Shown piece after piece: positions 39,963-60,188 of a DNA stretch of 64,000 nt; the stretch's first letter is position 1, and each line of letters opens with the position of its first letter. Both the position numbers and the translations under genes were made by a program. The DNA lies in the NCBI GenBank assembly GCA_963667625.1, contig OY763921.1, forward strand, positions 1,132,359 through 1,196,358, given 5' to 3'. The notes below the pieces were generated by a model. That model saw nothing but the letters and a program-made list of their open reading frames with translations, made no database searches and was not told the DNA's origin. Origin of the DNA: Thermodesulfobacteriota bacterium. GTDB lineage: Bacteria > Desulfobacterota_D > UBA1144 > Nemesobacterales > Nemesobacteraceae.

Positions 39963-39963
39963 T

Positions 39964-41411: not shown

Positions 41412-41421
41412 GATTTCCTCC

Positions 41422-42387: not shown

Positions 42388-42464
42388 TTCAGTTCTCCTC
42401 TTACAGAAAATCTATATATTGTTGTAGGGATTTTTCTTCCCACCACCCAATGGGTATAAATATA

Positions 42465-43940: not shown

Positions 43941-44480
43941 GTGAAAATATCAAACACAATCTCGAAAATCCTTATCGTCTTGCTTATAGCCCTGCTTGCC
44001 TATACGCTCTGGAGCGGGCTTTCGGGAAAGGGAAATGTCGAAACCCCTTCCCAGCTTGTGGGAAAAACCGCACCCGAGTTCGCGCTGCAGTCATTTAACG
44101 GCGAAGAGGTAAAGCTTTCTGATTTTCGGGGAAAGACAGTACTTGTGAATTTCTGGGCATCTTGGTGTCATCCCTGCAGAGAAGAAGCCCCGGAACTTGA
44201 GAGAGCTTACATGTCGCTTTCAGGAAAACAGGTGGAATTCATAGGAATAAACGTAATGGACAACAGGAAAAGCGCCGAGAAATACATAAAATCGTTCGGG
44301 GGAACCTTCATCAACGTTCATGACCCGGAAAACAGAGTGCATCTCGATTACGGAGTAGGAGGGGTTCCAGAAACCTTCTTCGTAGACCCCGACGGTATCA
44401 TAACCGGCAAGCACAGGGGACCGATTACGGAGAAAATGATCATGCGCTATGTCGAAAATGCGGCTTCCTCTCGAAATTAA
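43941..44480 (+). CDS. ccmG: Thiol:disulfide interchange protein CcmG/DsbE (cytochrome c maturation)
   Basis: N-terminal TM anchor, VNFWASWCHPCREEAP and GVGGVPETFFVD, the CcmG signature motifs. GTG start. Confidence 0.8.
   Translation: MKISNTISKILIVLLIALLAYTLWSGLSGKGNVETPSQLVGKTAPEFALQSFNGEEVKLSDFRGKTVLVNFWASWCHPCREEAPELERAYMSLSGKQVEFIGINVMDNRKSAEKYIKSFGGTFINVHDPENRVHLDYGVGGVPETFFVDPDGIITGKHRGPITEKMIMRYVENAASSRN
44470..44479. repeat. Left copy of an imperfect 9-10-bp direct repeat (CTCGAAATTA / CTCGAAAATT) flanking the 14.3-kb restriction-modification + helicase/DUF1998 island
   Basis: CTCGAAATTA at 44470-44479 (the 3' end of ccmG) and CTCGAAAATT at 58834-58843 (just upstream of ccmH). Confidence 0.35.
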
Positions 44481-44494
44481 CTTTTGACCAGATT

Positions 44495-45718
44495 TCATCT
44501 AAGACTGAGAGAACGAACATCTCTTATGAAACTCTCAAATGATTGCAAGTGAGGTCGAACGTTTTTAGGAAAAGAAGAAATTATTGGCGTAGGTACAACG
44601 AGTTGAACTTTGGCTTTTACCATTTCCGCGAATTGATTTTCAGACACGCCTTCTTGAAGGGTTAGCAAATGCTTGATTTTAATTCTGTCGGCTTCGTTAA
44701 GAATTTGACGCCATCTGTCTTTGCAGGTCGTTTTGACTGCCAGCATTTTCAGCCGATTAGATAAATGGCTCTTCGATTTATAAGCCTTTTCTGAAGGAAA
44801 AAGGAAATCAGGTCTTTTCCCTTTCTCCGATTCAGGTTGGTGAGTAAAGTCCTCATTTTCAATTAATCCTTCTTCCAGAAAAATACGCTTGGCATGTAAT
44901 TCAAGCGATCGACCTGAGCGCGCTTTCCTTCTCTGTAAAATTGACTGAGCCTTTAAAATGAAATCATCCAAATTTGCAAATCCCTTTTTAATGAAAGGAA
45001 GCTCAACAGCTTCTTCCACACTTCTAAAAACCTCGAATTCATATTGTCTTCTTTTAACGAGCCTAGAATCAGGCTTAATCCCAAGTGCACCTTTGATATC
45101 GATAGTTTTTTGAATGATTTCCATACCAGTTGGAAATTTCTCCAACCATTGTTCGGGGATTTCATCCGGGTATAGCCAACAAGAGCTTCTATCTGTTGGT
45201 CTTTGTTTTTCTACTTCATCCGAGGACCACACCTTTCCTGCTCCGGGTTCGACGGGGCCAATTCGGTTCTCAATAAAATCTTCTTCAGTTTCATGTCGAC
45301 AAACCCAGACATGGCAAGAGACAGCTTCTCTATTACTATCCAACTCAAAAGCAAAAACGCTCAAGGCTCCGGTACTCTCAGGATCAAGAAGAGGTGAATC
45401 CTGTCCTCCAAAATTTGTCAGTCGAGCTTCATCCCTACCTCTTTTAGGATTTCCATGAAATTTGTTGTTATACCATATTGCTCTAATTCTCCGACAATCA
45501 GTGTGAGAATCCACATACAAATCAAACCAGAGATCAGGGTTTTTTATTTCCTTTCTGTTCAGTAACGGGAAAATATCAAACAAAAAGTCTTTTGGAATAT
45601 AGGGTCCTGCCTGATGGGAACCATTAGCCAGAGTGTCATTTCCAGAAAGACGCTTTACATACCAGATGAAATCCGAGTTAGAAACCTCAGCTACCCAATC
45701 ACTCAACTCCATCTGCAT
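44495..45718 (-). CDS. Type IIE restriction endonuclease, EcoRII family (likely CCWGG-specific)
   Basis: 407 aa, alignable by eye along its length to EcoRII: YVKRLSGNDT..GSHQAG, IWVC..TEEDFIE, RMLAVKTTCKDRWRQILNEADRI, PDFLFPS. Confidence 0.9.
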   Translation of the reverse strand: MQMELSDWVAEVSNSDFIWYVKRLSGNDTLANGSHQAGPYIPKDFLFDIFPLLNRKEIKNPDLWFDLYVDSHTDCRRIRAIWYNNKFHGNPKRGRDEARLTNFGGQDSPLLDPESTGALSVFAFELDSNREAVSCHVWVCRHETEEDFIENRIGPVEPGAGKVWSSDEVEKQRPTDRSSCWLYPDEIPEQWLEKFPTGMEIIQKTIDIKGALGIKPDSRLVKRRQYEFEVFRSVEEAVELPFIKKGFANLDDFILKAQSILQRRKARSGRSLELHAKRIFLEEGLIENEDFTHQPESEKGKRPDFLFPSEKAYKSKSHLSNRLKMLAVKTTCKDRWRQILNEADRIKIKHLLTLQEGVSENQFAEMVKAKVQLVVPTPIISSFPKNVRPHLQSFESFIRDVRSLSLR

Positions 45719-46169
45719 CTTTACCCCTTATTTCGAAGAAAGGTGAGCGCCCTTTTAACCACGCAACACATTCATCAATAATTCTTTTTAAGTCTTTTTT
45801 GTGTTTGCCTTTTATAGCACACTCCCAAATAATTAAAACTCTCCAGCCTTTTTCAGATAACATTTGAATCGATTCTTCATCGTGGTATTTGTTTCGAGTT
45901 ATTTTCTGTTTCCAGAAATCAGGTCTGGTCTTAGGCCATTTAAATAAATGACAATTGTGGAGGTGCCAAAAACAACCATGTATAAAGACTACGGCCTTAA
46001 ACTTAGGAAAAACGATATCCGGCTTACCAGGAAGATCTCGGACGTGAAGCCTGTATCTGTATCCAAGTGCATGGATTGCCTTTCGAATAAAAAGTTCCGG
46101 TTTGGTGTTTTTACCTTTAATGCCGGACATCATCCGGCTTCTTTTCTCAGTCGATACTATATCAACCAA
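45699..46169 (-). CDS. vsr: Very-short-patch-repair endonuclease Vsr
   Basis: 156 aa with KPELFIRKAIHALGYRYRLH and FIHGCFWHLHNC. Overlaps the upstream C5-methyltransferase gene as dcm/vsr do in E. coli. Confidence 0.9.
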   Translation of the reverse strand: MVDIVSTEKRSRMMSGIKGKNTKPELFIRKAIHALGYRYRLHVRDLPGKPDIVFPKFKAVVFIHGCFWHLHNCHLFKWPKTRPDFWKQKITRNKYHDEESIQMLSEKGWRVLIIWECAIKGKHKKDLKRIIDECVAWLKGRSPFFEIRGKDADGVE

Positions 46170-47430
46170 CTGCTCTAAGTTCCCTTTGGTTGATTTGGAC
46201 TAATTGTTCTTCACTTTCAAGTATCCAAGGAACCATATGTCTTGCAATGGCCTCAACAACTGGAACAACAACTGCATTGCCAAACTGTTTGTAAGCTTGT
46301 ATATCAGAAACGGGGATAACAAACCGGCTTTCTGTGGGTTCATCAAATCCCATCAGTCGAGCACATTCCCTTGGAGTCAATCTACGAGGATTTCTTCTAC
46401 CATGTTGTTTTACCAGAATTTCGGAACCGTCTTTGTAATATCTTGCAGAAAGCGTTCTAGTAGTATCGTTATGGCCAACTAGACTGTAACCGAAGCCGTT
46501 ACCCTTTTTTCGATGCTTTTCTGCATAAGCCTGAAGATAATTCCAGAGTTTATCAGAAAGCGTATATTTAGGGAGAACCTTTCCTTCTCCATCAAGAAAC
46601 TTCCGGTTTTGCTCATTGAAAGTTTCAGAACCGTCTTCAGTATGAAGGATGTTGCCCAGCCTTGGAGTATCTATAGAATTAGGTTGGACAAAATTTTCAA
46701 AACTGAAATCGTTTTCTTCCAGAAAGCCAACTATGAAGATTCGTTCACGATGCTGTGGTACCCATGATTTAGCATCAATAACACGACAATGGACCTGGTA
46801 TCCCAATTCTTCTGTCAAAGTTCTATGGATAACCTTAAAAGTATTTCCTTTGTCATGACTAACCAAGTTTTTAACATTCTCAAGCAAGAACGTTTTTGGT
46901 TTGTGGTACTCAATGATTCGTGCTACATCAAAAAAGAGCGTGCCTTGTGCTTCGCATCGGAATCCGTGAGGACGATTGAGAGAATTTTTCTTTGATACTC
47001 CTGCAATGGAAAATGGTTGACACGGAAATCCAGCTAATAAGACATCATGCTTAGGAATGTCTTTAGCTTCTATTTGAGTGATGTCACCTACTACCTCATG
47101 GTCGCACAAATAATTGGCTTTATAGGTTTGTTGTGCATATTTGTCCCATTCACTAGTAAACACACATTTACCGCCAAGAGGTTCGAAGGCTCTCCTCAAA
47201 CCACCGATTCCAGCAAACAAATCAATAAATTTAAAGGCGGACTTTACAGGTGCATCATATGTTCTGGCAAGTTCCCTTAATACACGAATAGCTGCTTTTC
47301 TAGGTTTTGTTTCTCCTCGCTCCCATCGATACAAAGTCCTAGCAGAGAACCCTAATTCCTTGGCTAGTTCTTCGATTGACAATCCTGTTTTTTCTCTTAG
47401 GATTGAAAATTCATTGTTAGCATTCTGCAT
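46162..47430 (-). CDS. dcm: DNA cytosine-5 methyltransferase (Dcm/M.EcoRII-like) with N-terminal XRE-type HTH domain
   Basis: Motif I DLFAGIGG, motif IV GFPCQPFS, ENV motif. N-terminal LREKTGLSIEELAKELGFSARTLYRWERGE helix-turn-helix. Confidence 0.9.
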   Translation of the reverse strand: MQNANNEFSILREKTGLSIEELAKELGFSARTLYRWERGETKPRKAAIRVLRELARTYDAPVKSAFKFIDLFAGIGGLRRAFEPLGGKCVFTSEWDKYAQQTYKANYLCDHEVVGDITQIEAKDIPKHDVLLAGFPCQPFSIAGVSKKNSLNRPHGFRCEAQGTLFFDVARIIEYHKPKTFLLENVKNLVSHDKGNTFKVIHRTLTEELGYQVHCRVIDAKSWVPQHRERIFIVGFLEENDFSFENFVQPNSIDTPRLGNILHTEDGSETFNEQNRKFLDGEGKVLPKYTLSDKLWNYLQAYAEKHRKKGNGFGYSLVGHNDTTRTLSARYYKDGSEILVKQHGRRNPRRLTPRECARLMGFDEPTESRFVIPVSDIQAYKQFGNAVVVPVVEAIARHMVPWILESEEQLVQINQRELRAVG

Positions 47431-47631
47431 TTTCTATCCTAGAAGGGGAATTTCTCTGCCATTATGGCAAAATGATATCTTTTTTTCTTCCTAGTCACAA
47501 GAAAAACTTTCTATAGTAATATATGGGAATTGATAGACTTGATCGGAAGAATGCTCAAATTACTATATTCGGTTATTAAGAAGTGGACCATCAATTATAT
47601 ATGCTTTTAAAATACTTCAAGGTGATTCCAA

Positions 47632-50600
47632 ATGAATGAATCAGGAATACTCACCTATAAAGACAGAGAATCTTTACGACGAAGGATCAGGGAGTCTAAT
47701 TCAGACTCATCAATTTCAAATGAAAAACTGATCCTGCATCTGTCTTCTGTTCTACAAAACCAAGGGGTAGAAAGTGAAGAGGAAAAAATATTTCAAGAAT
47801 ACACTTTTGATCTGATAAATGTTTTGAGGACAGCAGACAACAAAGAAGCATCTGAAATAGCCCAAGCAGTTTTAAATTTTATTGCAACAAATTTCCAAGC
47901 GGATGCTGAAGAACGATGGAAATTGCCAGCGAAACAAAGAGTTTATATCACGAGTGTAGCGATTAAAGAGATCTCGGAAATCATTAATTTGCCTAAAGCC
48001 AATGAAATACATGGATTAACTGTAAAAGAAAGGGCTGAAGCGGAAAAACTATTGTTAAGGTTTGCATCAGTTTCGGACAGTGTTGATTTAAAAAATCGCA
48101 ATCATGCCAAAAATTTTATTGAATTGTATGACAGGGAAAAACAATCCCGTTTAATGACTAGGTACTTAAAAAACATAAAACTTCTTGTTAGAGCTTTAGA
48201 GAGTGGTGATTTAAATACAGAGGACAGAGCATGGGCTAGGGGTGCTTTGAGTTATATCAGACTTAACAGAGATGTTATACCTGATGAGTATGGATTGATT
48301 GGGGTGCTTGATGATATGTACATTGCAAATTTGGCTGTTGGTCTTATTCGGCCAAGTGCACCACCGCTAACAGAACTAGTACTGGAATTCAGAAAAATTT
48401 GGCCGATTTTAAATGGACTGATTTTTTCTGAGGACAAGTCAGAGTATAGGTATACAGATATTGCATCCATTAATTCGGCGTTGGTCTGCATGCCATTGAG
48501 GGGTGAGAATCAATTACGAACAGCTCTTGTGCTTCCGTTTTCTGGGTGTACACCCAACATTATCGCAATTGCCGCTGTCTTTGGTGCAATATCTGTTCTA
48601 GCTAAAAAGGTGAAAGATGGTCCCGATTTCAAGATTGGAGACTTGGTTCGGGTTGATAATACAGCTGTCGCAACATATGGCGGAATATATGTATTTGAAG
48701 GGAAAGAATATATACGGTTGAATCAAGTTACTAAAAAGGCCAGCGAGAAGCAACCGGAACAAACAGTGACGAATCTAATTCCGTTGCAAGACAGTGCAAG
48801 ACTATGCCCGGCGAAGGCAGGATCCAAAACGCAAGGTGAAATTCAAACGTACTTGAAGAGTACAGAAAGAGAGCTTTCGGCAATTGAAAATCTTTTACAT
48901 TTGCCTCATCCACTTCAGTTTCACAGTATTGATTCTCATATATGGTTAATCTCATCTGCTGACAGAATGCGTTCTTTAGCAAAAGACTTAAGGGTCCACG
49001 GCCAGCGCCTTATTGATGTTTTCCCGATGGGACATATTAAAAGGGATGGAACTTGTGAAGCTTGGAGTGCAAGATTTGGAGAATCCGAATGTGTTCTGAT
49101 AACCGTAACTGATCTAGATTTAGCAGCAGAAATTTTGGAAGAAACAGAAGGAACAGATAGAGATTTGGTGATAGCTGATCTGTCAGGACCGAACAGGAAT
49201 CGTATCTCTTCCCTTGAAAGGGTTTTTGATCTTGATCTAAATGTCCTTTGTATTGCAGAAGAACGAGATGAGGGCTTAATTTCTATTGTCGAGCAATATA
49301 ATCCTGACATATGGGAGTGGAGCGGGGAGGAAGTAAGTGAGATAGGAAAATTCCCGCAATCTCAATCTGACAGCACCCACCCATTTTACAAAAATGACGG
49401 TCGTTTGATAAGAGCGATTTCAGGAAATACCTCTACCAGAGCAGTTCAACTTGAGTCTCTTGAGTGGTGCCATGCAACAATTTCAGCTGCGACCAAGAAG
49501 GTTCCCCTGGAAACTGAAGATAAGACTTTAGAATTTCATGAAATATACAGAAAATTGTTTTCGATATTCCTTCGATTGACGAGGATGCCTTTCCAGGTTG
49601 ATCCTGAGTGGTTTGGAAATGATGAGAAAGTTCTTTCCACCTTGAAAGAGCAACTGGTTTCCAGTGTTTTTATGACAGAGGAAGAGAAAAAATCTCTAAC
49701 TGATATAAGTATGCTTATACACAAGGCGGGTCAAGCTCTGGTTAATGCAAACCCTAAATGGACTGAGATGTATGAAATACTGAAATCAAATCCCAAAGCA
49801 AAAGTATTAATTCATAATCCCGCTGTTATCCCTGATGAACTTCAAAGTGAAAAAAAATATATTCTGATGAAAGAAGCGTGTTCGACAGCATGTGAAATTT
49901 TGATTGTGCCTTACTGGCCGGGGAAAGACAAAAGTTGGAAGTTGTTGACCGAAGCTGACGTTAAAGAAATAGTTTTTTTATTGTATCCCTATGAGGCTGA
50001 TTGGTATAAGAGTTTTGTTCGCCATAGAGAGTTATCACGACGTAGTAGAACCGAAAGACGCAATAGTCAGGCGATATTTCCAAAAGTTGGAACTTGGCCG
50101 AAAAAAACAGTAATGGAAAAACTGAGTGACAACTTGAGCCAAACCCCACATGAACTAGATCTTGTGGAGCTGAACAATAGCTACAGAAGAACCCGGATTA
50201 TCAAATCAATTGAATCAATGGAAAAAGATGTATCTGTTGAAACCCGTTTAGTTGGTTTTAGCGGAGGTGGGCATGCATTCTTGTCGTCAGGATATGAGGC
50301 TAGACTAGCCACTTACTTACTTGAAAGTGAAGCACATGCAAATACTGAAAATATTACTATAAGTTCTGCTGTGCTGGATAATCTTAATATAGGTGACGTG
50401 CTCATATTTCTAAAGGGGTCTGACAAAGATGCCATAAGAAAAATAGCGGATGAAAACTTACCTGAAGGGATGAGGAATTTGGCCAAGCTCTGGCAAACAG
50501 CACTTAAAGGTTATGTGGAAAAAGAAAAAGTGTCATTGGAAGAATTGGTATCGCTATTGTCTCAACAAGGCTGTAGAAAACATAGGGCAACGGTTAAGAA

Positions 50601-50934
50601 TTGGCTTGAGAGTGAAAATATTATTGGACCACGTAATGCCCATAGAGGGGATCTTGAAGCTATTGTCAATGTTACTAATGATAGTACGTTGTCAACAAAT
50701 TTACCACAATGTCAGAATGCAATCACCGAGGTATGGGGACAGCATTTAAAAGCAGCAAAGTTGTTAGCTAAAAATCTATTGGAAAAGATCAGCAGCAATA
50801 CAAAATTTGATATAGACATCGAAGAGCCTGTAGAAGTAATCGATGGGATACTGCTGGCGAAAATCGAGTTTATCGAGTCAGAAACAGTACATATCCCTCG
50901 ATCGAAAATAAACCGATTACTGGAGGAACTCTAA
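47632..50934 (+). CDS. Large hypothetical protein (1100 aa), first gene of a helicase + DUF1998 module. No P-loop or nuclease motif found. N-terminal DUF1232/YkvA-like segment.
   Basis: A long uninterrupted ORF in an AT-rich island. DVIPDEYGLIGVLDDMYIANLAVG resembles the YkvA/DUF1232 motif. No GxxxxGK[ST] anywhere. Confidence 0.5.
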   Translation: MNESGILTYKDRESLRRRIRESNSDSSISNEKLILHLSSVLQNQGVESEEEKIFQEYTFDLINVLRTADNKEASEIAQAVLNFIATNFQADAEERWKLPAKQRVYITSVAIKEISEIINLPKANEIHGLTVKERAEAEKLLLRFASVSDSVDLKNRNHAKNFIELYDREKQSRLMTRYLKNIKLLVRALESGDLNTEDRAWARGALSYIRLNRDVIPDEYGLIGVLDDMYIANLAVGLIRPSAPPLTELVLEFRKIWPILNGLIFSEDKSEYRYTDIASINSALVCMPLRGENQLRTALVLPFSGCTPNIIAIAAVFGAISVLAKKVKDGPDFKIGDLVRVDNTAVATYGGIYVFEGKEYIRLNQVTKKASEKQPEQTVTNLIPLQDSARLCPAKAGSKTQGEIQTYLKSTERELSAIENLLHLPHPLQFHSIDSHIWLISSADRMRSLAKDLRVHGQRLIDVFPMGHIKRDGTCEAWSARFGESECVLITVTDLDLAAEILEETEGTDRDLVIADLSGPNRNRISSLERVFDLDLNVLCIAEERDEGLISIVEQYNPDIWEWSGEEVSEIGKFPQSQSDSTHPFYKNDGRLIRAISGNTSTRAVQLESLEWCHATISAATKKVPLETEDKTLEFHEIYRKLFSIFLRLTRMPFQVDPEWFGNDEKVLSTLKEQLVSSVFMTEEEKKSLTDISMLIHKAGQALVNANPKWTEMYEILKSNPKAKVLIHNPAVIPDELQSEKKYILMKEACSTACEILIVPYWPGKDKSWKLLTEADVKEIVFLLYPYEADWYKSFVRHRELSRRSRTERRNSQAIFPKVGTWPKKTVMEKLSDNLSQTPHELDLVELNNSYRRTRIIKSIESMEKDVSVETRLVGFSGGGHAFLSSGYEARLATYLLESEAHANTENITISSAVLDNLNIGDVLIFLKGSDKDAIRKIADENLPEGMRNLAKLWQTALKGYVEKEKVSLEELVSLLSQQGCRKHRATVKNWLESENIIGPRNAHRGDLEAIVNVTNDSTLSTNLPQCQNAITEVWGQHLKAAKLLAKNLLEKISSNTKFDIDIEEPVEVIDGILLAKIEFIESETVHIPRSKINRLLEEL

Positions 50935-50992
50935 TCTAAGGATGATCCCCAAACAATTTACCCTGACATTAGACGATGAAGGAGACTAGTTC

Positions 50993-52909
50993 GTGAAGGA
51001 CAAAAAAGAAAAAACACTCTCACCTGTGGAGGAATTTCGTGCGGTGTTGATTGACCAGTTACATAAGGAACTGGTAGGCCCCAACCCCCTTCTGGGCGAC
51101 TTGGAAGAGATATTGGATGAATCTCCTAGGCAAAGATATTGTGCGGGCATACTGTTTCCTTCAAATGTTCTAAATAAGGAAACAGAAGATTATGACGAGA
51201 ATGGTAAGGAGATCAGGGAGATGGAAGGACATGAAATTGATCTTGCCAAAAAAGAAGTTCGTCACTCCAAGGCCGGAGAAGCAGAGACTCTGGATGAGTA
51301 TGATGACACAATCACAATGGCAAACACCTATATGCCTTCTGCAATGGGAATTTCCTTTTTATGCGATAATTCGCCTAGAGGTCTTAAAGTGGTGACGAGT
51401 GCTGCTATCTATAAAACAGCAAAGCGTAAAGTTGAAGAGCGCGAATTTAACACATGGATCCGTAATCCTCTGGATTTGCCGGTATTGACGATTAGTCTTG
51501 AGGTTGATAGCAAAGATATAAGAATCGTTGAGCAAAAACTGAGAGGAAACCTTAAAATTAAAGCTGTCATCAGACGCAGAAATGATGACTCACGGCTCGT
51601 GACAGTCTCTATGTATAACACGAAAGTTAATTCGAGCTCTGGTCCTGTCTCTGTTACAGATTGTTTTTTTCAGTCCAGTTTTAAAGTTTTCTCACCTGAT
51701 GGTTCAACTATTTTCAGAGCCTATCAAGAAATGGCAACAGAATCTGAAGATCCCGAAGAAACAAGCCTTCGTTTACTTTATAGAAACCGACTTTCCTTTG
51801 GGGTCGGGCATGGTTGTGCTGTCAAGTGGTCCAAGGCACAGGGTGGCAAGGTAGACTGTGTTGAAACAGACTCACTTCCTTTTCAAAAAATTCCACCTGT
51901 CGAACCCCGGGGTGGCCAAGGCGAAGAATTAAACATGGTTAGCTTGGCTGGAGGTCTGGATGGTAAGAAACAAGAAATAGTCCCAGACATATTACAGGCG
52001 CTTGTGAACGACTATTCGTCGTGGATAGAGGGCATTTTAACAGAAGCAGCTAGGTTTCAATCTCCCCTGAAGGAAGCAGCCGACAGACATATAGATCTAT
52101 GCCAGAAAGCCCGCGACAGAATACAAGACGGAATTGCCGTTCTGAAATCTAACCCGGTTGCGCTGAGTGCATTTTGTATGGCAAACAAAGCGATGCTTAT
52201 GCAACAGTATCACAACAAAAGAAGCTCTAGGTCTACCAATGAAGGGTGGTTAGATATCAGTAAGGACTATAACCCTGTAGAACCTTGGATGGGACGATGG
52301 CGTACTTTTCAGTTGGCATTTATTCTCATGAATCTTGGCACGGTAACACCCGATGCTAAAGGCAAATTTTCACCAGAACGTAATCTGGTGGATCTGATCT
52401 GGTTCCCGACAGGTGGCGGTAAAACAGAAGCTTACTTAGGTTTGGCGGCATACACCATATTTCTTAGGCGACTTTTACAACCCAAGAATGCGGGTTGCAC
52501 TGTATTGATGCGTTACACACTTAGATTGTTAACAGCTCAGCAGTTTCAAAGAGCGGCTGCTTTGATCTGCGCTTGCGAATCTTTAAGGTGTAAATCACCG
52601 GAATTGCTGGGTGAAGAAGTTATTTCAATTGGTCTATGGGTAGGTCAGTCTTTAACACCCAATACACGTAAAGAAGCTATAGGAGCACTAAATGAATTAG
52701 TAAAAAATCCTCATGGCGGTGAAAACAAATTTCAGTTATTAAAATGTCCATGGTGTGGTACGAGGCTGGATGAAGAAGGCAAGCTGGGTTACAGAGTAAC
52801 GGGAAAAACACCAAAAAGAATACTGTTTGTTTGTCCTGAAGATCGTTATAGCGCGACAATCAAGATTGAACTGTTGCGACAATCAAGATTGAACTCTGGG
52901 TGTCGCTGA
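50993..52909 (+). pseudogene. SF2 helicase (DrmA-like), N-terminal fragment, interrupted by an IS21-family insertion after helicase motifs I/Ia
   Basis: A large N-terminal domain followed by motif I WFPTGGGKTEAYLG and motif Ia LRLLTAQQF. The ORF then reads into the insertion-sequence terminal repeat and stops. Confidence 0.7.
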
Positions 52910-52941
52910 TTGTGAGACGATACCGGCATATCTGACAGATA

Positions 52942-53796
52942 TCAATCTCCAGTTTTCGAGGTCAAACCCTTCGAGTTTTTCTCGGTAGCGTATTTCGCGG
53001 GTCTGCCCCGTTTTTTCTTCACCTCCTCCTTCTTTTTCTCCATCGCATGACGCAACCTGTAGCTCTCCACGTTCATTTCAAGGATTACGCAGTGATGCAC
53101 AAGGCGATCCACTGCCGCCACAGCCGTATTTTCGTCAGGAAATACGTTTTTCCATTCCTCAAAGGGCTGATTCGCCGTAATAAGCAGTGACCTGCTCTCA
53201 TAACGGTTCGATATAAGCTCAAACAGCACCCTGGTTTCATCCCGATCTTTGCGTACGTACGCAAGATCATCGAGAATCAGCAGGTCATAACGGTTGAGTC
53301 GCTCAAGCATACTCTCCAGACGAAGCTCTCTATGGGCCATCTGAAGTCTCTGCACAAGGTCCGTCGTGCGGGTGAACATAACTCTTTTGCCCTGTTCCAC
53401 CAAGGCAAGCCCTATGGCCGAGGCAAGATGACTCTTCCCCACCCCCGGAGGTCCGAAGATTATCACGTTGTGACCTCCTTTGAGCCATGAATCGGTTGAA
53501 GCAAGCGCTCTTACCCTTGCCATGGATATAGTGGGAACCACAGAGAAGTCGAAGTTATCAAGACTCTTGCCGGCTATGAGATGAGCTTCGCTCAGGTGGC
53601 GCTGTATTCTCCTGCGCCCTCGCTCCGCGAGTTCGAGCTCGGCAAGCGCCCACAGCAGTCTTCCCGCCGGCCACCCCTCCCTGTCCGCCCGCTCGGCGAA
53701 CTGTTCCCAGGTGTTCTTTATGGCAGGCATTCTGAGTTCGGAGAACATCAGGGTAAGTCCCAGAGAATCTATTTTTGTGTTTTCTTTCGTGTTCAT
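52942..53796 (-). CDS. istB: IS21-family helper ATPase IstB
   Basis: 284 aa, Walker A GPPGVGKSHLA, DnaC-like AAA+. Confidence 0.9.
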   Translation of the reverse strand: MNTKENTKIDSLGLTLMFSELRMPAIKNTWEQFAERADREGWPAGRLLWALAELELAERGRRRIQRHLSEAHLIAGKSLDNFDFSVVPTISMARVRALASTDSWLKGGHNVIIFGPPGVGKSHLASAIGLALVEQGKRVMFTRTTDLVQRLQMAHRELRLESMLERLNRYDLLILDDLAYVRKDRDETRVLFELISNRYESRSLLITANQPFEEWKNVFPDENTAVAAVDRLVHHCVILEMNVESYRLRHAMEKKKEEVKKKRGRPAKYATEKNSKGLTSKTGD

Positions 53797-53822
53797 TGTT
53801 TTTCTCCTTTTTCTTCAATAAG

Positions 53823-55316
53823 TCAAAATAACGGCGTGTAGCTTGAAAGATCTCCCGCCTGGACGTCCACTTCCCTCATCGGCCCCGCTTTCATTGTGAA
53901 ACGCTCCTTGAGTCCGTCCATATCGGGCAGTTCTCCAGAGTTTACCGTGTCCCTTATCGCAAGCGCCAACTGGTCTTCACAGCTCTGCTCATGGGCCAGG
54001 GCAAGCAGTTTTACCGTGATTCTGCACGCCTCGCGCCTTCCAAGAAGTGAAAGAGCGAGCTCAAAACACTTTTTGTATTCCTCCCTTGGAAACAGTTCGT
54101 TGCGGTACACAAGATTCATAAGCGCTCCCGGCTTTTTCTTCAGAGAGTGAACCACATGATGGTAATTCACCTCGTAAACCGTTTTATCGCCGTCTTTTCG
54201 CCTTCTGGGAAGCGTCAGCTGATGACGGCCCCCGAAGTGCAGCTCTATGTTCGCATCATATACACGGGCCTCAAGACGGTGCCCTATGAGGCGGGAGGGA
54301 ACGGTATAGAACACTCCTTTGAGCAGAAAGCCGCCTGATGAGGTTACTGTCACGCTGTGGCGCTCATGCCAGGGCGCGGAACCCGCGGGAAGGGACCTCA
54401 GGGTTTTTCTCTCCGCTTCTATGCGCTCCGTTCTGCGGGCATTTATGTTCGAGGTCACCTCGGCAACAAAGTCGCGGTACTCTTCGATTTCCGCAAAGTC
54501 CCGGGACCCCCGAAGCTCTAAAGCGTCAGCTATTTCCCTTTTGAGATGACCGTGAGCCCCCTCTATGGCCCCGTTCTCATGGGCAACGCCCTTGTTGTTT
54601 CTCGTAGCTTCCATTCCGTAATGAGCGCAAAGATCCTCATATCTTCTGGTCATGTCTTTTTTCTGATCCTTGCTGAGGTTCTTGAATGCCGCGGAGAGTG
54701 AATCGGTGCGGTTCTCCGCGGGAGTTCCGCCGAGAGTCCGCAATGCCGCTTCAAGCCCCTGGGAGAAGGCGACGAAGCTTTCTCCTCCCTCAACTACGCT
54801 TGCGTGGACAAAGCCCGACCACGGGAGTCTGAAGTGAAAGAGCATATGATCAAACTGTCTTCTGGCGATTGTGACCTCAGCATCTCTCATCCTGGTAAAA
54901 TCGGAGATGCCCATATCTCCGGCTTTCTTGTTCTGGCGGAATATGACCTCTTTATCGGGGCCGTGTTCGGTTCTCCAGGTCCTTATACGCCTCTCAAGGG
55001 TGCGGCGAACCCCTGAGTCAAGCTCCGGATTGTTGCGAAGAAGCTCGTAAAAGACCGTAGAGGGCCTTATATCGGGACAATTACGAAGAATGGGGAGTAC
55101 CTGGGAGTCCCAGATGCCTTCAAGAGGGTCTGGGCGACGCCTCCCTCGGGGCTTTCTCTCCTTTTTCTGCTCTGTTCCAAGTTCTTTTTTGATCTGAAAG
55201 CCTGATGTGCGACCGAAGCCCGACTTGGCCGCAGCCGTTTCTGCTGAGAGTTTTTCTTCGGTGATGAGTTTCATGAATTTCCTCCTTTGTTCATCGGTTA
55301 TGTGTTGACCCGGCAT
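53823..55316 (-). CDS. istA: IS21-family transposase IstA
   Basis: 497 aa with an N-terminal HTH and a DDE integrase core. Confidence 0.9.
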   Translation of the reverse strand: MPGQHITDEQRRKFMKLITEEKLSAETAAAKSGFGRTSGFQIKKELGTEQKKERKPRGRRRPDPLEGIWDSQVLPILRNCPDIRPSTVFYELLRNNPELDSGVRRTLERRIRTWRTEHGPDKEVIFRQNKKAGDMGISDFTRMRDAEVTIARRQFDHMLFHFRLPWSGFVHASVVEGGESFVAFSQGLEAALRTLGGTPAENRTDSLSAAFKNLSKDQKKDMTRRYEDLCAHYGMEATRNNKGVAHENGAIEGAHGHLKREIADALELRGSRDFAEIEEYRDFVAEVTSNINARRTERIEAERKTLRSLPAGSAPWHERHSVTVTSSGGFLLKGVFYTVPSRLIGHRLEARVYDANIELHFGGRHQLTLPRRRKDGDKTVYEVNYHHVVHSLKKKPGALMNLVYRNELFPREEYKKCFELALSLLGRREACRITVKLLALAHEQSCEDQLALAIRDTVNSGELPDMDGLKERFTMKAGPMREVDVQAGDLSSYTPLF

Positions 55317-55487
55317 TGAAACCTCCTGTTCAAAGAAAATGAACAGAAGGCTTTACCAAATCAGCGACGAATACTGAAGGAAATTCTTCCCCCGGGATGG
55401 TGTCTGAAACTCCAGTCGGGCTACGCCCTCCTTCCGTTTCAGACACCATCCTCAGAGTTCAATCTTGATTGTCGCGCTAGTTCGAAG

Positions 55488-56972
55488 TTGATTGACGCGG
55501 TAGATCGTTGTGAGTTTAGTTCCTTAAAGAATCCATTGCCTGTTCTTGTTACGGATGAAGACATCTATGAGAACCCACCTGCATTACTTATAGGAACTGT
55601 GGATAAATTTGCCATGCTTGCTTGGCGTGGCCAAGCTTCCAGCCTGTTTGGAAAGGGTAAAAATGTCTTGCCACCGGAGTTGATAATTCAAGATGAACTA
55701 CACCTCATATCTGGCCCTCTGGGAACCTTTGTAGGTCTATATGAGGGAGTGATAGAACTGCTTTGTACAAGAAAAGATGGAACAAAGCCGAAAATTGTGG
55801 GTTCTACAGCCACAATAAGAAGAGCTGGTGATCAGTGTAAAGCACTCTATAATCGGGAAACTTTTCAATTCCCACCTCCAGGTATTGATTCCTCTGACTC
55901 ATACTTTGCTAAGGAGAATAATAACACTCCCGGTAGAATTTATATGGGCGTGTTTCCTACAGCCTCTCCATCTTTTGTCACAGCATTGGTTCGGACTGCT
56001 TCAAGTGTGTTGCAGGGAGTGAAAACTATAGATCTACCCGAGGGAGCGGATGAGAGCGTTCGGGATCCTTATTGGACTTTGGTTGAGTATTTCAACAGCT
56101 TGAGAGAATTAGGTCGGGCATTGACGTTACTACAGGCAGACATACCTGAATATATGTGGGTAGTTGCCAGTCGTTTAAAACTGCCAAAGGAAAAAGTTAG
56201 AAATCTTTACTCCATTGAAGAGCTTACTAGTCGCAAAAGCGCACAGGAAATTCCTGAAATCTTGGAAACGCTTAGTTTTTCTTGGCCTTTTGAAAAAGAA
56301 TCAAAAAAACGCCCCATTGATGCCCTGCTGGCCACAAACATGTTTTCTGTTGGTGTAGATGTCGATAGGCTGGGGTTGATGTCAATTGTGGGGCAACCTA
56401 AAAGCACATCTGAATATATTCAATCCAGTAGCCGGGTAGGACGTTCAAAGGATGCGCCCGGTTTAGTGATAGTTATGTATAATCCGGGCAAACCCCGTGA
56501 TCGTTCTCATTTTGAACAATTCCGAACTTATCACTCGGCACTTTATCGTTACGTTGAACCTACCAGTGTTACGCCCTATTCGATACCGGTTATGGAGCGT
56601 GCTTTACATTCATTGTTAGTGATTATTGGTCGTCATATAGCTGGTTGGAAAGATCCAGCAGATGCGGACTTTGATTCTCCCGAGGTCAATACAGCTTTGA
56701 GTGCTATAGTTGATCGATGCAAGGCAATTGACCCAGATCATCTTGAGATACTTGAAGAAAGATTCGAAGATTTAAAAAAACGTTGGTTAACTGCAGGTTT
56801 TGATACTTGGGGTACTCTTGGCAATCCTGATAAGTATAGACTACCGTTGATGTACCCAGCCGGCTCATCAGAATTAAGTGACTGGAACAGCAACAGTTGG
56901 GCAACTCCTAGCTCTATGCGGTTTGTCGACACAGAGTGTGAAGCAGAGGTTATCCATATTTACCCAGTATAG
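55488..56972 (+). pseudogene. SF2 helicase (DrmA-like), C-terminal fragment. Motif II DELH onward plus the helicase C-terminal domain.
   Basis: LIIQDELHLISGPLG (motif II), TATIRRAGDQ (motif III-like), LLATNMFSVGVDVDRLGLM and SSRVGRS (motifs V/VI). It continues the ORF interrupted at 52.9 kb. Confidence 0.7.
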
Positions 56973-56984
56973 AGAGGAAGTCTG

Positions 56985-58832
56985 ATGGCCAACAGAGAAA
57001 GAAGAATACGTAAGTCACAAATGATCTCACCTTACGGTGTTGGTGCAATAGTTGAATTTCCCAAAGAAACGTTAATGCATGCTGGCCTAGATGCTTGGAA
57101 TCCAGCAGAAGAACAAACCTTGTCTGATGATCGATTGGCTCGGCGACTTAAAGTCAAAATGTTTTACGAACCAGCACAAGCACCGGAGAAGAACAAACCG
57201 GGGAAGTGCATTCCTTTTGTCAGATTCCCTTTATGGCATGTTTGTCCTCGTTGTCGTGCCATGAAAAAGGTAGGATGGAATGCGAGACACCGACCCGTTT
57301 GTGACAGCGATCTAAAACCGCTATTTAACGGGTTGCCTTGCAGCAGATTTACTAAAAAGTGGCAAAAACCGATTATGGTGCCGGTGCGTTTTGTGATGGC
57401 TTGTAATCATGGCCATGTGGTTGACTTTCCTTGGATTGAGTGGGCTCATTCCTCCAAAGGGAAAAAGATTAGGAAAGGAACCGAGGTGTGTGACAGTCCC
57501 AAATTACGTCTCAGGGTTACAGGTCGGTCTGGATTAACAGGACTAAGTGTTAAATGTGAGAATTGTGGTACAGGTCGATCTCTGGCAGGTGCCACAGGTC
57601 CTAAAACGTTCATAGATTTCGGCTGTGGTGGTGAACGTCCTTGGTTAGGGCCAGAAGCAAGAGAAGACTGTAAGAGCGGAGTTCCACCTAGAGTTACTCA
57701 TAGGGGTGCAACCAATATTTATTTCCCAAAAGTAATTAGTTCAATTTTGATACCCCCTTATTCGACACATGTTAGACGGATAATCAGTAGACCCAAAAAC
57801 TGGAGCTTGATTAATAATAGCGTAGATGCTGACAGTAATATTAATGAAGAACAGGTCAAGTTGCTTTCTAAAATTTGGGAAATAGAATTTGATGATCTCT
57901 TGACAGCTATCAGAGACAAGCTAAGTGGTGAAACTCGACAGTCAGATCAAACAGAGGATGAGTATCGCCACGAAGAATACAAAGCTTTCAAGGTTGGGAA
58001 AAATCGCAAAACTACTGATGATCTGAATGTAAATCCACAAGATCTGTCCACCTATGACCAAGATATTGCACGGTATTTCAAAACCATCATTTTGGTGGAG
58101 AAGCTCACTGAAACCAGAGTCCTGACTGGCTTTACAAGAATAAATCCCCCTGATTCAGGGAACGTAACCGCCACTAGGACTGCTTCGCTATCAAAACAAC
58201 AGAAAGACTGGTTACCGGCAGTACGAGGGTACGGTGAGGGTATATTTTTCACAATTAAACAGTCGATTTTGGACGAATGGTCAAAGAATGACATGGTCTT
58301 AAAAAGGGTTAAGAAGCTAAACGATCGTCAGAATAAGATCCGTACTAGTCAGGGATATGCACCACGAGAGATTATGCCCGCATTCGTTTTGCTGCATAGT
58401 CTTGCTCATATCTTAATTAACCGTTTAAGCTTTAATTGTGGCTATGGAAGCTCGTCGTTAAGGGAAAGAATTTATTGTCGTCAAGAGGGAGAAGGAAAGA
58501 TGGCAGGGGTTTTGATATACACGTCTGCATCTGATTCAGAAGGAACTCTTGGTGGTTTGGTAAGACAAGGCCAACATGGGCGCTTCGAATCGGTACTTAG
58601 ACAGTCCTTGCTTGATGCTCTGAATTGTTCCTCAGACCCATTGTGTATAGAAAGTGAGGGGCAGGGGGCAGATGCACTGAACCTTGCAGCTTGTCACGCT
58701 TGCGCACTGTTACCAGAGACGAGTTGTGAAGAAGGCAATCGCTTGCTCGACAGATTGCTACTTGTGGGCATGCCTCAACAATATGATGTAGGATACTTTG
58801 GTAGTCTAGTAAATAATTTGTTAAGTGGCTAA
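56985..58832 (+). CDS. DUF1998-domain protein (DrmB-like)
   Basis: 615 aa. A Cys cluster CPRCRAMKK...CENCGTGRS and a C-terminal CHACALLPETSCEEGN. It follows the helicase gene after 12 nt, as in the DISARM drmA-drmB pair. Confidence 0.6.
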   Translation: MANRERRIRKSQMISPYGVGAIVEFPKETLMHAGLDAWNPAEEQTLSDDRLARRLKVKMFYEPAQAPEKNKPGKCIPFVRFPLWHVCPRCRAMKKVGWNARHRPVCDSDLKPLFNGLPCSRFTKKWQKPIMVPVRFVMACNHGHVVDFPWIEWAHSSKGKKIRKGTEVCDSPKLRLRVTGRSGLTGLSVKCENCGTGRSLAGATGPKTFIDFGCGGERPWLGPEAREDCKSGVPPRVTHRGATNIYFPKVISSILIPPYSTHVRRIISRPKNWSLINNSVDADSNINEEQVKLLSKIWEIEFDDLLTAIRDKLSGETRQSDQTEDEYRHEEYKAFKVGKNRKTTDDLNVNPQDLSTYDQDIARYFKTIILVEKLTETRVLTGFTRINPPDSGNVTATRTASLSKQQKDWLPAVRGYGEGIFFTIKQSILDEWSKNDMVLKRVKKLNDRQNKIRTSQGYAPREIMPAFVLLHSLAHILINRLSFNCGYGSSSLRERIYCRQEGEGKMAGVLIYTSASDSEGTLGGLVRQGQHGRFESVLRQSLLDALNCSSDPLCIESEGQGADALNLAACHACALLPETSCEEGNRLLDRLLLVGMPQQYDVGYFGSLVNNLLSG

Positions 58833-58844
58833 CTCGAAAATTTC

Positions 58845-59243
58845 ATGAACTCTCTTTTTCGTAAAATTCTAAGTATAGGACTTTTCTTACCCTTGGCTTT
58901 TTTTATCGCCTTCCAAGTGAATGCGGATACACTTGAGGATCAAATCGCCGAAATCTCGGGAGAACTCATGTGTCCCGTATGCGAGGGCCAGAGCGTCGCG
59001 GAGTCAAACGCCCAGCTTGCCAGGGACATGAGGGCCGTAATAAAAACAAAGCTGCTTGAAGGCAAGTCAAAGGAAGAAATAATAGATTATTTCGTCTCAA
59101 GCTACGGAGAAACTATTCTCGCATCTCCTCCGCCCAGAGGATTCAGCGTAATATTATGGCTCCTGCCCGTACTTTCCGTACTTATCGGCGGAGCGATAAT
59201 CCTGAGAACCGTTTACTCATACAGGGTTGAGGAAAAAAAATAG
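58845..59243 (+). CDS. ccmH: Cytochrome c-type biogenesis protein CcmH
   Basis: Signal peptide, LMCPVCEGQSVAESNAQLARDMR (the CcmH CxxC motif) and a C-terminal TM segment. Confidence 0.85.
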   Translation: MNSLFRKILSIGLFLPLAFFIAFQVNADTLEDQIAEISGELMCPVCEGQSVAESNAQLARDMRAVIKTKLLEGKSKEEIIDYFVSSYGETILASPPPRGFSVILWLLPVLSVLIGGAIILRTVYSYRVEEKK

Positions 59244-59255
59244 TCGCGGAGATGG

Positions 59256-60188
59256 TCAGCAGAAAAATTCTCTACATGCCTCAAGTATCGGGGCATTCCC
59301 TCTTTCGGAGTCAAACCACTTTATGTCTTCATCCGCGCGAAGCCAAGTGGACTGTCTTTTGGAAAACCTTTTCGTGTCCGTCTTTATTTTTTCAACCACC
59401 ATCTTAAAATCAAGCCGATCGTCCAGAAATTCGTTGATCCTCTTGTAACCTATGGACTTCATAGGCTTTAAGCCGGGTCCGTATCCCTTGGCCCTTATAG
59501 CTTTTACTTCTTCAACCCAGCCGCGGTCGATCATTGAGTCAACCCTTTCGTCTATAGCACGGCGCAGCCGCCCCCGGTCCCCGAGGAGGCCTATCTTAAG
59601 CGCGTTAAATCTCTGTTCCGCAAAACCGTGGCGTTGATGATGATTCGACATGCGCTCGCCTGTTGTGTGATACACCTCAAGTGCCCGTTCAATTCTCACG
59701 TAATCGTTCGGATTTATCCGCTCCGCGGATACCGGGTCTACAGCCTCAAGCTTTTTGTGAAGCCACACCACTCCTTTTTCATCTCTCTCCAGCGCGAGAC
59801 GCTTTCTGAATTCGCGATCAATCTCAACACCTTCGAGGAGCCCGTAAAGAAGAGCCTTGACGTAAAGAAAAGTTCCTCCGACCACGACTATTTTCCTGTC
59901 GCCCTCAACGAGCCTCCCGATGTGGTCAAGGGCAAGTCTCATGTACGTGCCGGCGTTAAAATCCTCGTCGGGATCCGCGACATCTATGAGGAAATGGGGA
60001 ATCTTCTGTCTTTGCTCCTCGGTGGGTTTGGCACTGCCTATATCGAAATGCCTGTAGACCTGAACGGAATCGGCGCTTACTATGCAAGCACCGGTTTTTC
60101 GGGCTATTTCCAGCGCCATTTCGGTCTTGCCCGAAGCCGTAGGTCCTAAGACAACTATCAGCTTCGGTTTTTCCCGGGAAAGACTCAA
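59256..60188 (-). CDS. miaA: tRNA dimethylallyltransferase
   Basis: LIVVLGPTASGKTEMALEIA P-loop and the IPHFLIDV motif. Confidence 0.9.
   Translation of the reverse strand: MSLSREKPKLIVVLGPTASGKTEMALEIARKTGACIVSADSVQVYRHFDIGSAKPTEEQRQKIPHFLIDVADPDEDFNAGTYMRLALDHIGRLVEGDRKIVVVGGTFLYVKALLYGLLEGVEIDREFRKRLALERDEKGVVWLHKKLEAVDPVSAERINPNDYVRIERALEVYHTTGERMSNHHQRHGFAEQRFNALKIGLLGDRGRLRRAIDERVDSMIDRGWVEEVKAIRAKGYGPGLKPMKSIGYKRINEFLDDRLDFKMVVEKIKTDTKRFSKRQSTWLRADEDIKWFDSERGNAPILEACREFFC

Follow-up and report, generated by a model that had tools for sequence, protein, structure and literature searches.

The anti-phage system DISARM, in which self DNA is marked by methylation, was originally defined by a core of three genes, which encode the SF2 helicase DrmA (PF00271; DISARM branch of the YprA family), the DUF1998/MZB protein DrmB from a separate gene beside drmA, and the PLD-family nuclease DrmC (PF13091). 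Class 1 systems are recognised by the SNF2 helicase DrmD and the N6-adenine methylase DrmMI, and class 2 systems by a DrmMII-type C5 methyltransferase (PF00145) and a DrmE family protein encoded upstream of drmA. As far as the class 2 system of Bacillus paralicheniformis (Ofir et al., 2018) is outlined in bioRxiv 10.1101/2021.12.28.474362, its genes are arranged drmE-drmA-drmB-drmC-drmMII. According to the same preprint, drmA, drmB and drmE are essential, DrmC is dispensable, and DrmMII, the only characterised class 2 methylase, methylates CCWGG. Published work treats drmE as a gene without known function. The study of the class 1 system of Serratia sp. SCBI (DrmAB cryo-EM structures 7S9V and 7S9W; PMC9142583) noted that DrmC is "often missing", described a trigger loop, found that the complex loads at 5′ overhangs and that its ATPase is slower on 5mC DNA, and raised a "mix-and-match" idea for DISARM.

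We analysed a 64,000-nucleotide stretch of a Candidatus Dadabacteria chromosome (hereafter the window), in which an initial annotation had proposed that a large protein, a helicase and a DUF1998 protein formed a defence module fitting no known system. Our results make it very likely that the locus is of class 2 DISARM type (drmE, drmA and drmB with an adjoining C5 methylase and vsr), lies in an island bearing EcoRII, and has been inactivated by an insertion sequence. The defence island spans 14.3 kb between ccmG and ccmH, and the AT-rich character ascribed to it was confirmed, with a G+C content of 0.37-0.44 in the locus versus about 0.46-0.52 in the flanks. All ORFs from 44495 to 58832 could be assigned, giving the following features:

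44495..45718, minus strand: EcoRII-family type IIE restriction endonuclease, 407 aa (EcoRII-N 3.4e-54; EcoRII-C 6.1e-60; PADLOC REase_II 1.2e-87)
45699..46169, minus strand: vsr, very-short-patch T:G mismatch endonuclease (Pfam Vsr 2.3e-30; TIGR00632 150.5 bits, cutoff 97.85)
46162..47430, minus strand: HTH plus C5 cytosine DNA methyltransferase, Dcm/M.EcoRII-like (Pfam DNA_methylase 1.3e-86 and HTH_31)
47632..50934, plus strand: drmE, long form, 1100 aa (ATG ORF; NCBIfam NF038316)
50993..52847, plus strand: drmA 5′ part, codons 1-618, with trigger-loop-like acidic segment, motif I GGGKT and first half of the zinc ribbon (PADLOC DrmA 4e-86)
52848..55501, minus strand: IS21-family element, 2,654 bp, inside drmA (Pfam IstB_IS21 2.4e-64; Mu-transpos_C_2)
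52942-53796, minus strand: istB of the IS21-family element
53823-55316, minus strand: istA of the IS21-family element
55510..56972, plus strand: drmA 3′ part, motif II DELH to motif VI and C-terminal tail, joining in frame (PADLOC DrmA 2.3e-137; Pfam Helicase_C 1e-6)
56985..58832, plus strand: drmB, 615 aa, Cys-rich DUF1998/MZB zinc-binding partner of DrmA (NCBIfam, PADLOC, Pfam, PDB)

The helicase, which had been read as a single protein of ~1,150 aa, turned out to be encoded by two plus-strand ORFs (50993-52909, 638 aa; 55488-56972, 494 aa) that are split by the IS21-family element, present in one copy within the window. The element is bounded by a perfect 8-bp target duplication, AGATCGTT, at 52840-52847 and 55502-55509, and its terminal inverted repeats contain internal repeats, of which I1 is 55 nt long with a 24-nt perfect core. 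The element entered RecA domain 1 at a codon of the zinc ribbon (CxxC...C), so that motifs I/Ia lie on one side of it and motif II on the other. When the element was removed in silico, drmA read through in frame with no other lesion to give a protein of 1105 aa, and drmA is uninterrupted at this same length in the sister loci of the window clade (L006, L010 and L019). The presence of SF2 motifs, as initially annotated, was confirmed (GGGKT, DELH and QSSSRVGR). The restored protein scored 985.4 bits on the DISARM_DrmAS equivalog model NF038325 (cutoff 950) and 660.8 bits on the long-type model NF038326, below the cutoff of 999, which places it in the short type; its match to PDB 7s9v_A reached 3.8e-163. 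Residues 26-282, with the acidic segment, aligned to residues 147-408 of Serratia DrmA, covering its trigger loop (176-232). The dN/dS values of drmA and drmB (about 0.13-0.18) show that both genes have still evolved under purifying selection. Because of this selection, and because the target duplication is perfect and no secondary lesions occur in drmA, drmB or drmE, the insertion looks recent. Because drmA is severed between motif I and motif II of the helicase, the DISARM system is off as encoded, and the three genes therefore represent a known system in decay and do not make up a new one.

The 615-aa Cys-rich protein was located as initially described, as a separate gene starting 12 nt past the drmA stop at 56972. 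It scored 496.9 bits on NF038324 (DrmB_fam; cutoff 240), matched the PADLOC DrmB model at 1.4e-84 and Pfam MZB at 3.9e-8 (34.3 bits; cutoff 24.2), and aligned with PDB 7s9v_B over aa 7-605 (1.4e-76), so that the helicase/DUF1998 pair indeed consists of DrmA and DrmB homologs.

The lead protein, which had been taken to be of unknown function, belongs to the DrmE family: it scored 246.8 bits on NF038316 (DrmE_fam; cutoff 80) across 822 residues, and its homologs are already named DrmE family proteins at NCBI. A full HMMER scan retrieved 1229 cluster representatives, including forms of 850-900 aa whose match starts at about position 240, and a word-indexed search only 16 clusters. At full length the protein had no Pfam match, and Pfam DrmE_C gave 27.0 bits, equal to the cutoff. 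Its N-terminal ~240-275 aa form a helical extension, to which an SF2-helicase-like core and a DrmE_C domain are joined. Of the YkvA/DUF1232-like segment noted near the N-terminus, a similarity at aa 200-232 does exist (E 0.0022), although at 18.1 bits it stays below the cutoff of 23. The reported lack of a P-loop was borne out, with LPxSG[IL]TP at this position in 14/14 homologs. Structure modelling predicts an SF2-helicase core without the Walker A lysine; the fold matches have low global TM-scores, and only ~250-330 residues align. Being predicted as helicase-shaped with the ATP-binding lysine lost, DrmE would most likely bind DNA or serve as an adaptor and not drive the complex as a motor. 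The modelled SF2-helicase scaffold, in which the ATP site is degenerate, yields a hypothesis on the essential role of DrmE that can be tested.

No methyltransferase lies in the operon itself, as the initial annotation stated, but the C5-methylase gene starts 201 bp upstream of drmE on the opposite strand, divergently oriented, and is followed by vsr and the EcoRII-family endonuclease gene. Vsr limits mutation from 5-methylcytosine deamination, and CCWGG is the EcoRII site. The methylase scored 291.5 bits on PF00145 and 322 bits on NCBIfam dcm (TIGR00675); in PADLOC its best match was the generic MTase_II (3e-156), with DrmMII (PDLC02653) at 5.3e-136. Its identity with the DrmMII-like methylase of L010 is just 25%, though the L010 cassette is 97% identical to that of the window. 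Compared with known EcoRII/Dcm/Vsr modules, the minus-strand genes at 44495-47430 have the same composition and match the domain models in full, including both the N- and C-terminal domains of the endonuclease, so that the restriction-modification module appears intact; this copy differs in the N-terminal HTH domain of its methylase and in its link, both physical and evolutionary, with a DISARM core. The EcoRII–Vsr–methylase module and the DISARM genes have moved as one island, which shares 95-98% identity with that of L006, against 74-89% for the flanks. We regard the methylase, which also serves EcoRII, as a candidate DrmMII-equivalent self-marking enzyme. Given the generic best match, the EcoRII-Vsr-Dcm triad, the divergent orientation and the low identity to the L010 enzyme, it is linked to DrmEAB by adjacency and co-inheritance only.

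As initially reported, DrmC and DrmD are both lacking: PADLOC and Pfam revealed no PLD or SNF2 gene among the ORFs of the island (44495-58832), and no PLD match was obtained in the adjoining 7-kb insert or seen in 19 related loci. Since DrmC is absent, the original three-gene core definition and the PADLOC five-gene type II rule (PMC9252829) are not fully satisfied, and we classify the locus as a class 2 DISARM variant without DrmC, inactivated by the insertion. With Bacillus paralicheniformis it shares a DrmE family protein upstream of drmA, a short-type DrmA, a separate drmB gene and, judging from sequence, an associated C5 methylase, which is Dcm/EcoRII-like here and methylates CCWGG in Bacillus. 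It differs from that system in the missing PLD nuclease, the extra N-terminal helical region of DrmE, a divergent methylase inside an EcoRII-Vsr module, the interrupted drmA, and a NERD+SF1 helicase gene that separated drmE from drmA in the ancestral form of its lineage. Compared with Serratia, the DrmA and DrmB proteins are homologous and DrmC is dispensable there too, whereas the island lacks the SNF2 DrmD and the N6-adenine DrmMI, its DrmA lacks the N-terminal portion of ~146 residues described there as EVE-like, and its DrmE has no counterpart in the class 1 system.

An undescribed system, neither DISARM nor Druantia and led by a novel 1100-aa protein, was suggested by the missing Pfam match at full length, the weak PADLOC DrmE match, the 16 clusters of the word-indexed search and the absence of DrmC. 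This is very improbable, as the DrmE_fam score is far above its cutoff, the HMMER representatives include the shorter forms, the homologs bear the DrmE name at NCBI and DrmA passes the equivalog model. Since the lead protein is a known DrmE homolog and the PLD gene is simply absent, the locus is essentially in the state that the initial annotation itself had named as speaking against a new system. We give practically no weight to a system of the kind of Druantia type III (DruH+DruE) or of Dpd (DpdJ; 7-deazaguanine DNA modification), even though all these systems use YprA-family helicases with DUF1998 and weak DpdJ matches (2e-6 and 7e-8) were obtained. DpdJ reached 30.5 bits where the cutoff is 800, and the DrmA scores surpass those for DpdJ by over 100 orders of magnitude. 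A Dpd system would combine DpdJ with dpdA/B/C and preQ0 synthesis genes, and the island holds no dpd or queuosine-pathway genes. Druantia, with its DruH and its DruE helicase fused to DUF1998/nuclease domains, was excluded: the DruE and DruH models gave no match at E < 0.01, DUF1998 is encoded by a gene of its own, which is what marks the DISARM branch, and the lead protein is DrmE.

More weight, while still on the unlikely side, falls to the possibility that the methylase belongs to the EcoRII restriction-modification module alone, the DISARM core being an orphan that lost its own DrmMII and Vsr in an upstream swap and adjoins the module through defence-island clustering. The homology of the window with L010 and L019 ends ~90 bp upstream of drmE, where these two carry a different 512-aa DrmMII-type methylase and Vsr, and the window enzyme is 25% identical to theirs, matches MTase_II best and is transcribed divergently from its neighbour drmE. 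The PADLOC DrmMII model nevertheless matches it strongly, the sole characterised class 2 DrmMII has the EcoRII specificity, the two gene sets were co-inherited as a block far better conserved than its flanks, and drmA and drmB have been under purifying selection in the present arrangement; DrmAB, moreover, responds to 5mC itself and not to a specific sequence (PMC9142583). That the locus is still active, with the IS21 copy in part of the population only or with DrmA halves that reassemble, seems improbable. Both the signs of a recent insertion and a TTG-initiated ORF that resumes at 55488, inside the IS end, could be read in this way, but the break lies inside RecA domain 1 and its zinc ribbon, no promoter or ribosome-binding evidence backs expression of the drmA 3′ half, and the system that has been studied cannot do without ATPase activity and the assembly of DrmAB (PMC9142583).

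Sixteen loci outside the window clade (L001-L005, L007-L009, L011-L018), from hosts including Sedimenticolaceae, Ca. Thiodiazotropha and Microbulbifer, hold the closest relatives of all three proteins of our class 2 variant (DrmE 25-57% identical) in the same gene order, with a C5 methylase nearby, usually with Vsr, and no PLD gene. In 16/16 of them, a translationally coupled gene for a NERD+UvrD-like SF1 helicase (~585 aa; PADLOC RTasNERD-Hel 4e-46) follows drmE and precedes drmA. The window lineage had already deleted this gene before the IS insertion: L010 and L019 retain remnants of it (aa 1-42 and ~521-583) between drmE and drmA, and none was found in the window. Several of these loci also differ in pairing the methylase with an AspBHI-like methyl-directed endonuclease, not EcoRII. 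A C5 methylase adjoins the DISARM genes in 11 related loci, with DrmMII as its best PADLOC model in L005, L008 and L010; every relative with enough flank has such a methylase, and Vsr lies beside them in L001, L007, L009, L010, L012 and L019. We found no paper linking the NERD+SF1 helicase gene with DISARM. We tentatively raise the rather doubtful idea of an unrecognised DISARM subclass of which the window would represent the degraded end, with the ancestral operon DrmE–NERD+SF1 helicase/nuclease–DrmA–DrmB, a C5 methylase and Vsr nearby, and the NERD-helicase replacing DrmC. If so, the Dadabacteria clade would have lost the NERD gene and kept DrmE, DrmA and DrmB under purifying selection beside the EcoRII module, a natural demonstration that the DISARM core needs no nuclease of its own in order to work and is able to team up with any 5mC methylase and nuclease that happen to adjoin it.

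By analogy with the Serratia and Bacillus systems, with steps transferred from class 1 at moderate identity, the methylase of the intact system would mark host DNA with 5-methylcytosine, probably at CCWGG because it is paired with EcoRII and Dcm-like, and Vsr would repair T:G mismatches arising from deaminated 5-methylcytosine. The DrmA-DrmB helicase complex, held off by the acidic trigger loop, would load at the single-stranded 5′ ends of foreign DNA, whether incoming or replicating, and burn ATP on unmethylated DNA, thereby blocking phage replication, presumably with DrmE as the subunit proposed above.

The window is best annotated as carrying class 2 DISARM genes (drmA pseudogene, drmB and drmE) with an adjoining EcoRII module. 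The long DrmE subfamily for the most part escapes the DrmE models of PADLOC v2, which barely detect the window protein (1.6e-6) and fail to find the L007 homolog at all, and the five-gene rule fails without DrmC; such loci are therefore probably under-called as DISARM. Two sister genomes carry IS insertions of independent origin, one in drmA and the other in drmE, which hints at recurrent inactivation.

To define the gene layout of the defence island, an ORF scan was carried out, and the results revealed three plus-strand genes, drmE, drmA and drmB, in an AT-rich block with a G+C content of 0.37-0.44 inside versus about 0.46-0.52 outside. This agrees with the initial annotation in its AT-rich island, its 1100-aa lead protein and its separate 615-aa DUF1998 gene, whereas the helicase that it had read as one ~1,150-aa gene proved to be two ORFs split by an IS21-family element. 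Its statement that the operon lacks a methyltransferase holds for the drmE strand only, since a minus-strand trio of methylase, vsr and EcoRII genes begins 201 bp upstream of drmE. The whole block, 44495-58832, is seated between a ccmG/dsbE-like gene and ccmH. The host is a Candidatus Dadabacteria bacterium, its PNPase sharing 99% identity with a protein from a named MAG. A search for promoters and terminators in the 201 bp between the methylase and drmE scored no better than shuffled sequence.

Genes of the island and its flanks
43941-44480, ccmG/dsbE-like gene, island flank
44495-45718, minus strand, EcoRII-family endonuclease, complete
45699-46169, minus strand, vsr
46162-47430, minus strand, HTH and C5 cytosine methylase (Pfam 291 bits; PADLOC MTase_II 3e-156; DrmMII model 5e-136)
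47632-50934, plus strand, lead ORF (drmE), 1100 aa
50993-52909, plus strand, 5′ piece of the helicase (drmA) ORF
52848-55501, IS21-family element, 2,654 bp, istA/istB on the minus strand
52942-53796, minus strand, IstB gene, between the helicase ORFs
53823-55316, minus strand, IstA-like gene, between the helicase ORFs
55488-56972, plus strand, 3′ piece of the helicase (drmA) ORF
56985-58832, plus strand, drmB ORF, 615 aa
58845-59243, ccmH, island flank

The limits of the IS21-family element were set at 52848-55501 because the istA/istB insert is bounded by imperfect inverted repeats of 55 nt, with a perfect core of 24 nt, and by an exact 8-bp direct repeat, AGATCGTT, at 52840-52847 and 55502-55509. 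Deleting the element and one repeat copy in silico joined the two helicase ORFs in frame into a protein of 1105 aa with zero further lesions, carrying the motifs GGGKT, DELH and QSSSRVGR. The insertion point lies within a CxxC...C zinc ribbon (...FVCPEDR|CEF...). Because the target duplication is clean and the frame is otherwise undamaged, the insertion is probably recent. The element occurs once in the window and matched no plasmid.

The profile searches recommended by the initial annotation were run on all three proteins with Pfam, NCBIfam and PADLOC, and DrmE, the restored DrmA and DrmB all scored above their NCBIfam cutoffs. The restored helicase matched the equivalog NF038325 "DISARM system helicase DrmA" at 985.4 bits (cutoff 950), and the 615-aa protein matched DrmB_fam at 496.9 bits (cutoff 240). 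PADLOC (DrmA 2e-137, DrmB 1e-84) and the Serratia DrmA and DrmB chains of structure 7S9V (4e-163 and 1e-76) concurred, in line with the earlier impression that the helicase and DUF1998 pair recalls DrmA/DrmB. The window DrmA also aligns in the trigger-loop region, where its segment is acidic and of low complexity. The lead protein, formerly regarded as of unknown function, matched DrmE_fam at 246.8 bits (cutoff 80), its residues 276-1097 spanning the full 838-position profile; its PADLOC DrmE score was weak (1.6e-6). Full-length DrmE gave no match in Pfam, whereas NCBIfam, and Pfam run on pieces, did identify it. Three homologs already carry the NCBI name "DrmE family protein".

These assignments replace the proposal that the locus fits neither DISARM nor Druantia and may be undescribed. 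Druantia III was rejected on model scores, as were Dpd and an MrfA-type repair helicase. The DISARM core consists of drmA, drmB and drmC; class 2 systems have drmMII in addition, and some of them drmE as well (bioRxiv 10.1101/2021.12.28.474362). The window locus has DrmA, DrmB, DrmE and a C5 methylase. It lacks the PLD nuclease DrmC, as the first reading had it; no PLD gene occurs in any of the nineteen related loci either. Owing to the absence of DrmC, the locus falls outside both the strict three-gene core and the PADLOC type II DISARM rule, which comprises five genes (PMC9252829). We call it a DrmC-less class 2 DISARM variant, not a full member.

Exact look-ups with the window DrmE and DrmB returned no record, and searching PDB sequences with a DrmE profile gave no match. 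Word-indexed homolog searches with DrmE returned one and the same set of 16 clusters, none of them canonical DrmE. Canonical DrmE was reached by a full HMMER scan using a profile of 14 sequences. It yielded 1229 cluster representatives, many of about 1100 aa and many others of 850-900 aa that match from about position 240 onward, so the window DrmE belongs to the long form of a sizeable family. Residues 1-270 (window 47632-48441) form an N-terminal helical extension with an invariant G(L/V)LDDMY motif. It is this motif that accounts for the DUF1232 (YkvA) match in the extension, so the similarity noticed initially is present, but it lies below threshold (E 0.0022). The JGI label "membrane protein YkvA" on a DrmE fragment of locus L006 rests on the same DUF1232-like motif and is probably a misannotation.

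The suggested structure prediction of DrmE was performed with AlphaFold2 from the 14-sequence alignment (mean pLDDT 78.5, pTM 0.69), and Foldseek ranked SF2-type helicases first, namely Dicer, RIG-I, MDA5, LGP2 and Hef (E 5e-6 to 1e-3). The strand-loop-helix at the expected Walker A position reads LPxSG[IL]TP with no lysine in 14/14 sequences, which bears out the reported lack of a P-loop, and [VI][DN]LSG stands at the Walker B position. DrmE also has a conserved CIAEE[KR]D motif. DrmE may thus be a helicase-shaped protein that has lost ATP hydrolysis, as far as the model goes.

The comparison with homologous loci and their methyltransferases, also proposed at the outset, covered nineteen loci besides the window (L001-L019), three in a close clade with it and 16 outside. 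A genome contig scan contributed two loci, and a metagenome scan six, mostly short. In the close clade (window, L006, L010 and L019), DrmE proteins are at least 91% identical; outside it, DrmE is 25-57% identical to that of the window. All 16 outside loci (L001-L005, L007-L009 and L011-L018) carry, directly between drmE and drmA, a gene of ~585 aa with a NERD nuclease domain and a UvrD-like SF1 helicase (e.g., L003:3615-5369 and L012:13303-15057). It is usually translationally coupled, with stop and start codons that overlap, and PADLOC labels it RTasNERD-Hel (4e-46).

L006 shares the ccmG...ccmH site and the EcoRII-Vsr-methylase module with the window and has an intact drmA. Its drmE is split, in the region 8184-10556, by an IS1595-type element, whose transposase was called as two genes and whose cargo is a 493-aa N6/N4 DNA methylase; this is a second, independent IS event on the three-gene module. 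L010 and L019 occupy another chromosomal site, with drmA and drmB intact, Vsr present, no EcoRII, and another methylase, of 512 aa, for which DrmMII is the top PADLOC match. Fragmented DrmE in cluster members and in L019 was discounted as real disruption, the source being 4-8x long-read contigs. Within the drmE-drmA gap of ~360 bp, L010 (8252-8603) and L019 (6311-6433) still encode residues 1-42 of the NERD-helicase, and L010 additionally roughly its final 60 residues, which looks like the footprint of an internal deletion. The remnant is gone from the window and L006, and no homolog was found anywhere in the 64-kb window. With remnants in L010 and L019 and none in the other two, the window locus is a reduced derivative, the NERD-helicase gene having been lost in the clade.

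At the family level, the conserved NERD+SF1 helicase occupies the place expected for DrmC. No link between DISARM and NERD was found in the papers and supplements searched, and a broad survey describes "many uncharacterized" classes within the DISARM-like clade. Of all the findings, only this one and the DrmE fold might interest a specialist; taken by itself, the window locus is an ordinary, degraded one.

A C5 methylase was found in 11 loci; among loci whose flanks are long enough, it is missing only from L017 and from L012, which is cut off where the locus ends. The window methylase shares only 25% identity with the L010 or L008 enzyme, and the C5 methylases across loci are not orthologous. 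In several relatives an AspBHI-like endonuclease is paired with a C5 methylase beside the DISARM genes (L001:20660-22811, L008:14415-16555, L009:14250-16390 and L012:22766-23303). This protein combines an SRA-like N-terminal domain with an Mrr catalytic domain (PADLOC "methyl-directed" type II, 1e-155), and a 5mC-dependent nuclease adjoining a 5mC methylase is an odd pairing. GmrSD (L019:13442-15550) and a ScoMcrA-like SBD+HNH protein (L005:303-1019), both modification-dependent nucleases, also lie beside DISARM cassettes.

Among the window, L006 and L010, dN/dS was 0.13-0.18 in drmA and 0.13 in drmB, while the methylase gave 0.12 and EcoRII 0.16. Such low values point to purifying selection on the three-gene form, persisting even after loss of the NERD-helicase gene. 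Between the window and L006, the island (44519-58905) is 95-98% identical, versus 74-89% for ccmG, ccmH and otsAB, and synonymous divergence is 0.09-0.17 in the island versus 0.59 in the flanks (43921-44518 and 58906-59296). On this difference in identity, the restriction-modification and DISARM genes would have moved together, later than the divergence of the hosts. The change-points in identity lie in the 3′-terminal part of ccmG and within ccmH, and the comparison suggests that the island passed between related Dadabacteria via recombination through the flanking genes.

In studied systems, drmC is not essential, whereas defence disappears when drmA, drmB or drmE is deleted; CCWGG is the methylation target of the Bacillus DrmMII, the loss of which is deleterious (bioRxiv 10.1101/2021.12.28.474362). 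A trigger loop autoinhibits DrmAB, which 5′ single-stranded overhangs activate (PMC9142583). An intact window locus would presumably work likewise, and the EcoRII-type methylase, with CCWGG as its predicted target, would provide the self mark. In its present form the DISARM part is likely inactive, because the break in DrmA falls within RecA domain 1; the EcoRII module is expected to remain functional.

The collinear contig L006 lacks a 7-kb insert that the window has at 36907-43920. The minus strand of this insert encodes a complete type III CBASS, and its plus strand another CBASS, which is degraded. Together with the island, the insert makes 36.9-58.8 kb a defence hotspot. The tRNA/EF-Tu region at 6453-8130 is ordinary chromosomal context.

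Features of the 7-kb insert and the tRNA/EF-Tu region
37230-37781, plus strand, 1TM effector (degraded CBASS)
37985-38785 and 38775-39131, plus strand, split cyclase (degraded CBASS)
39240-40139, minus strand, NucC endonuclease (type III CBASS)
39964-40896, minus strand, TRIP13 (type III CBASS)
40893-41411, minus strand, HORMA (type III CBASS)
41422-42387, minus strand, CBASS cyclase (type III)
42472-43440, IS30-like transposase
6453-6526, tRNA-Trp
6550-7779, minus strand, EF-Tu-sized ORF, downstream of the tRNA cluster
7786-8130, tufB-type tRNA cluster Thr-Gly-Tyr-Thr
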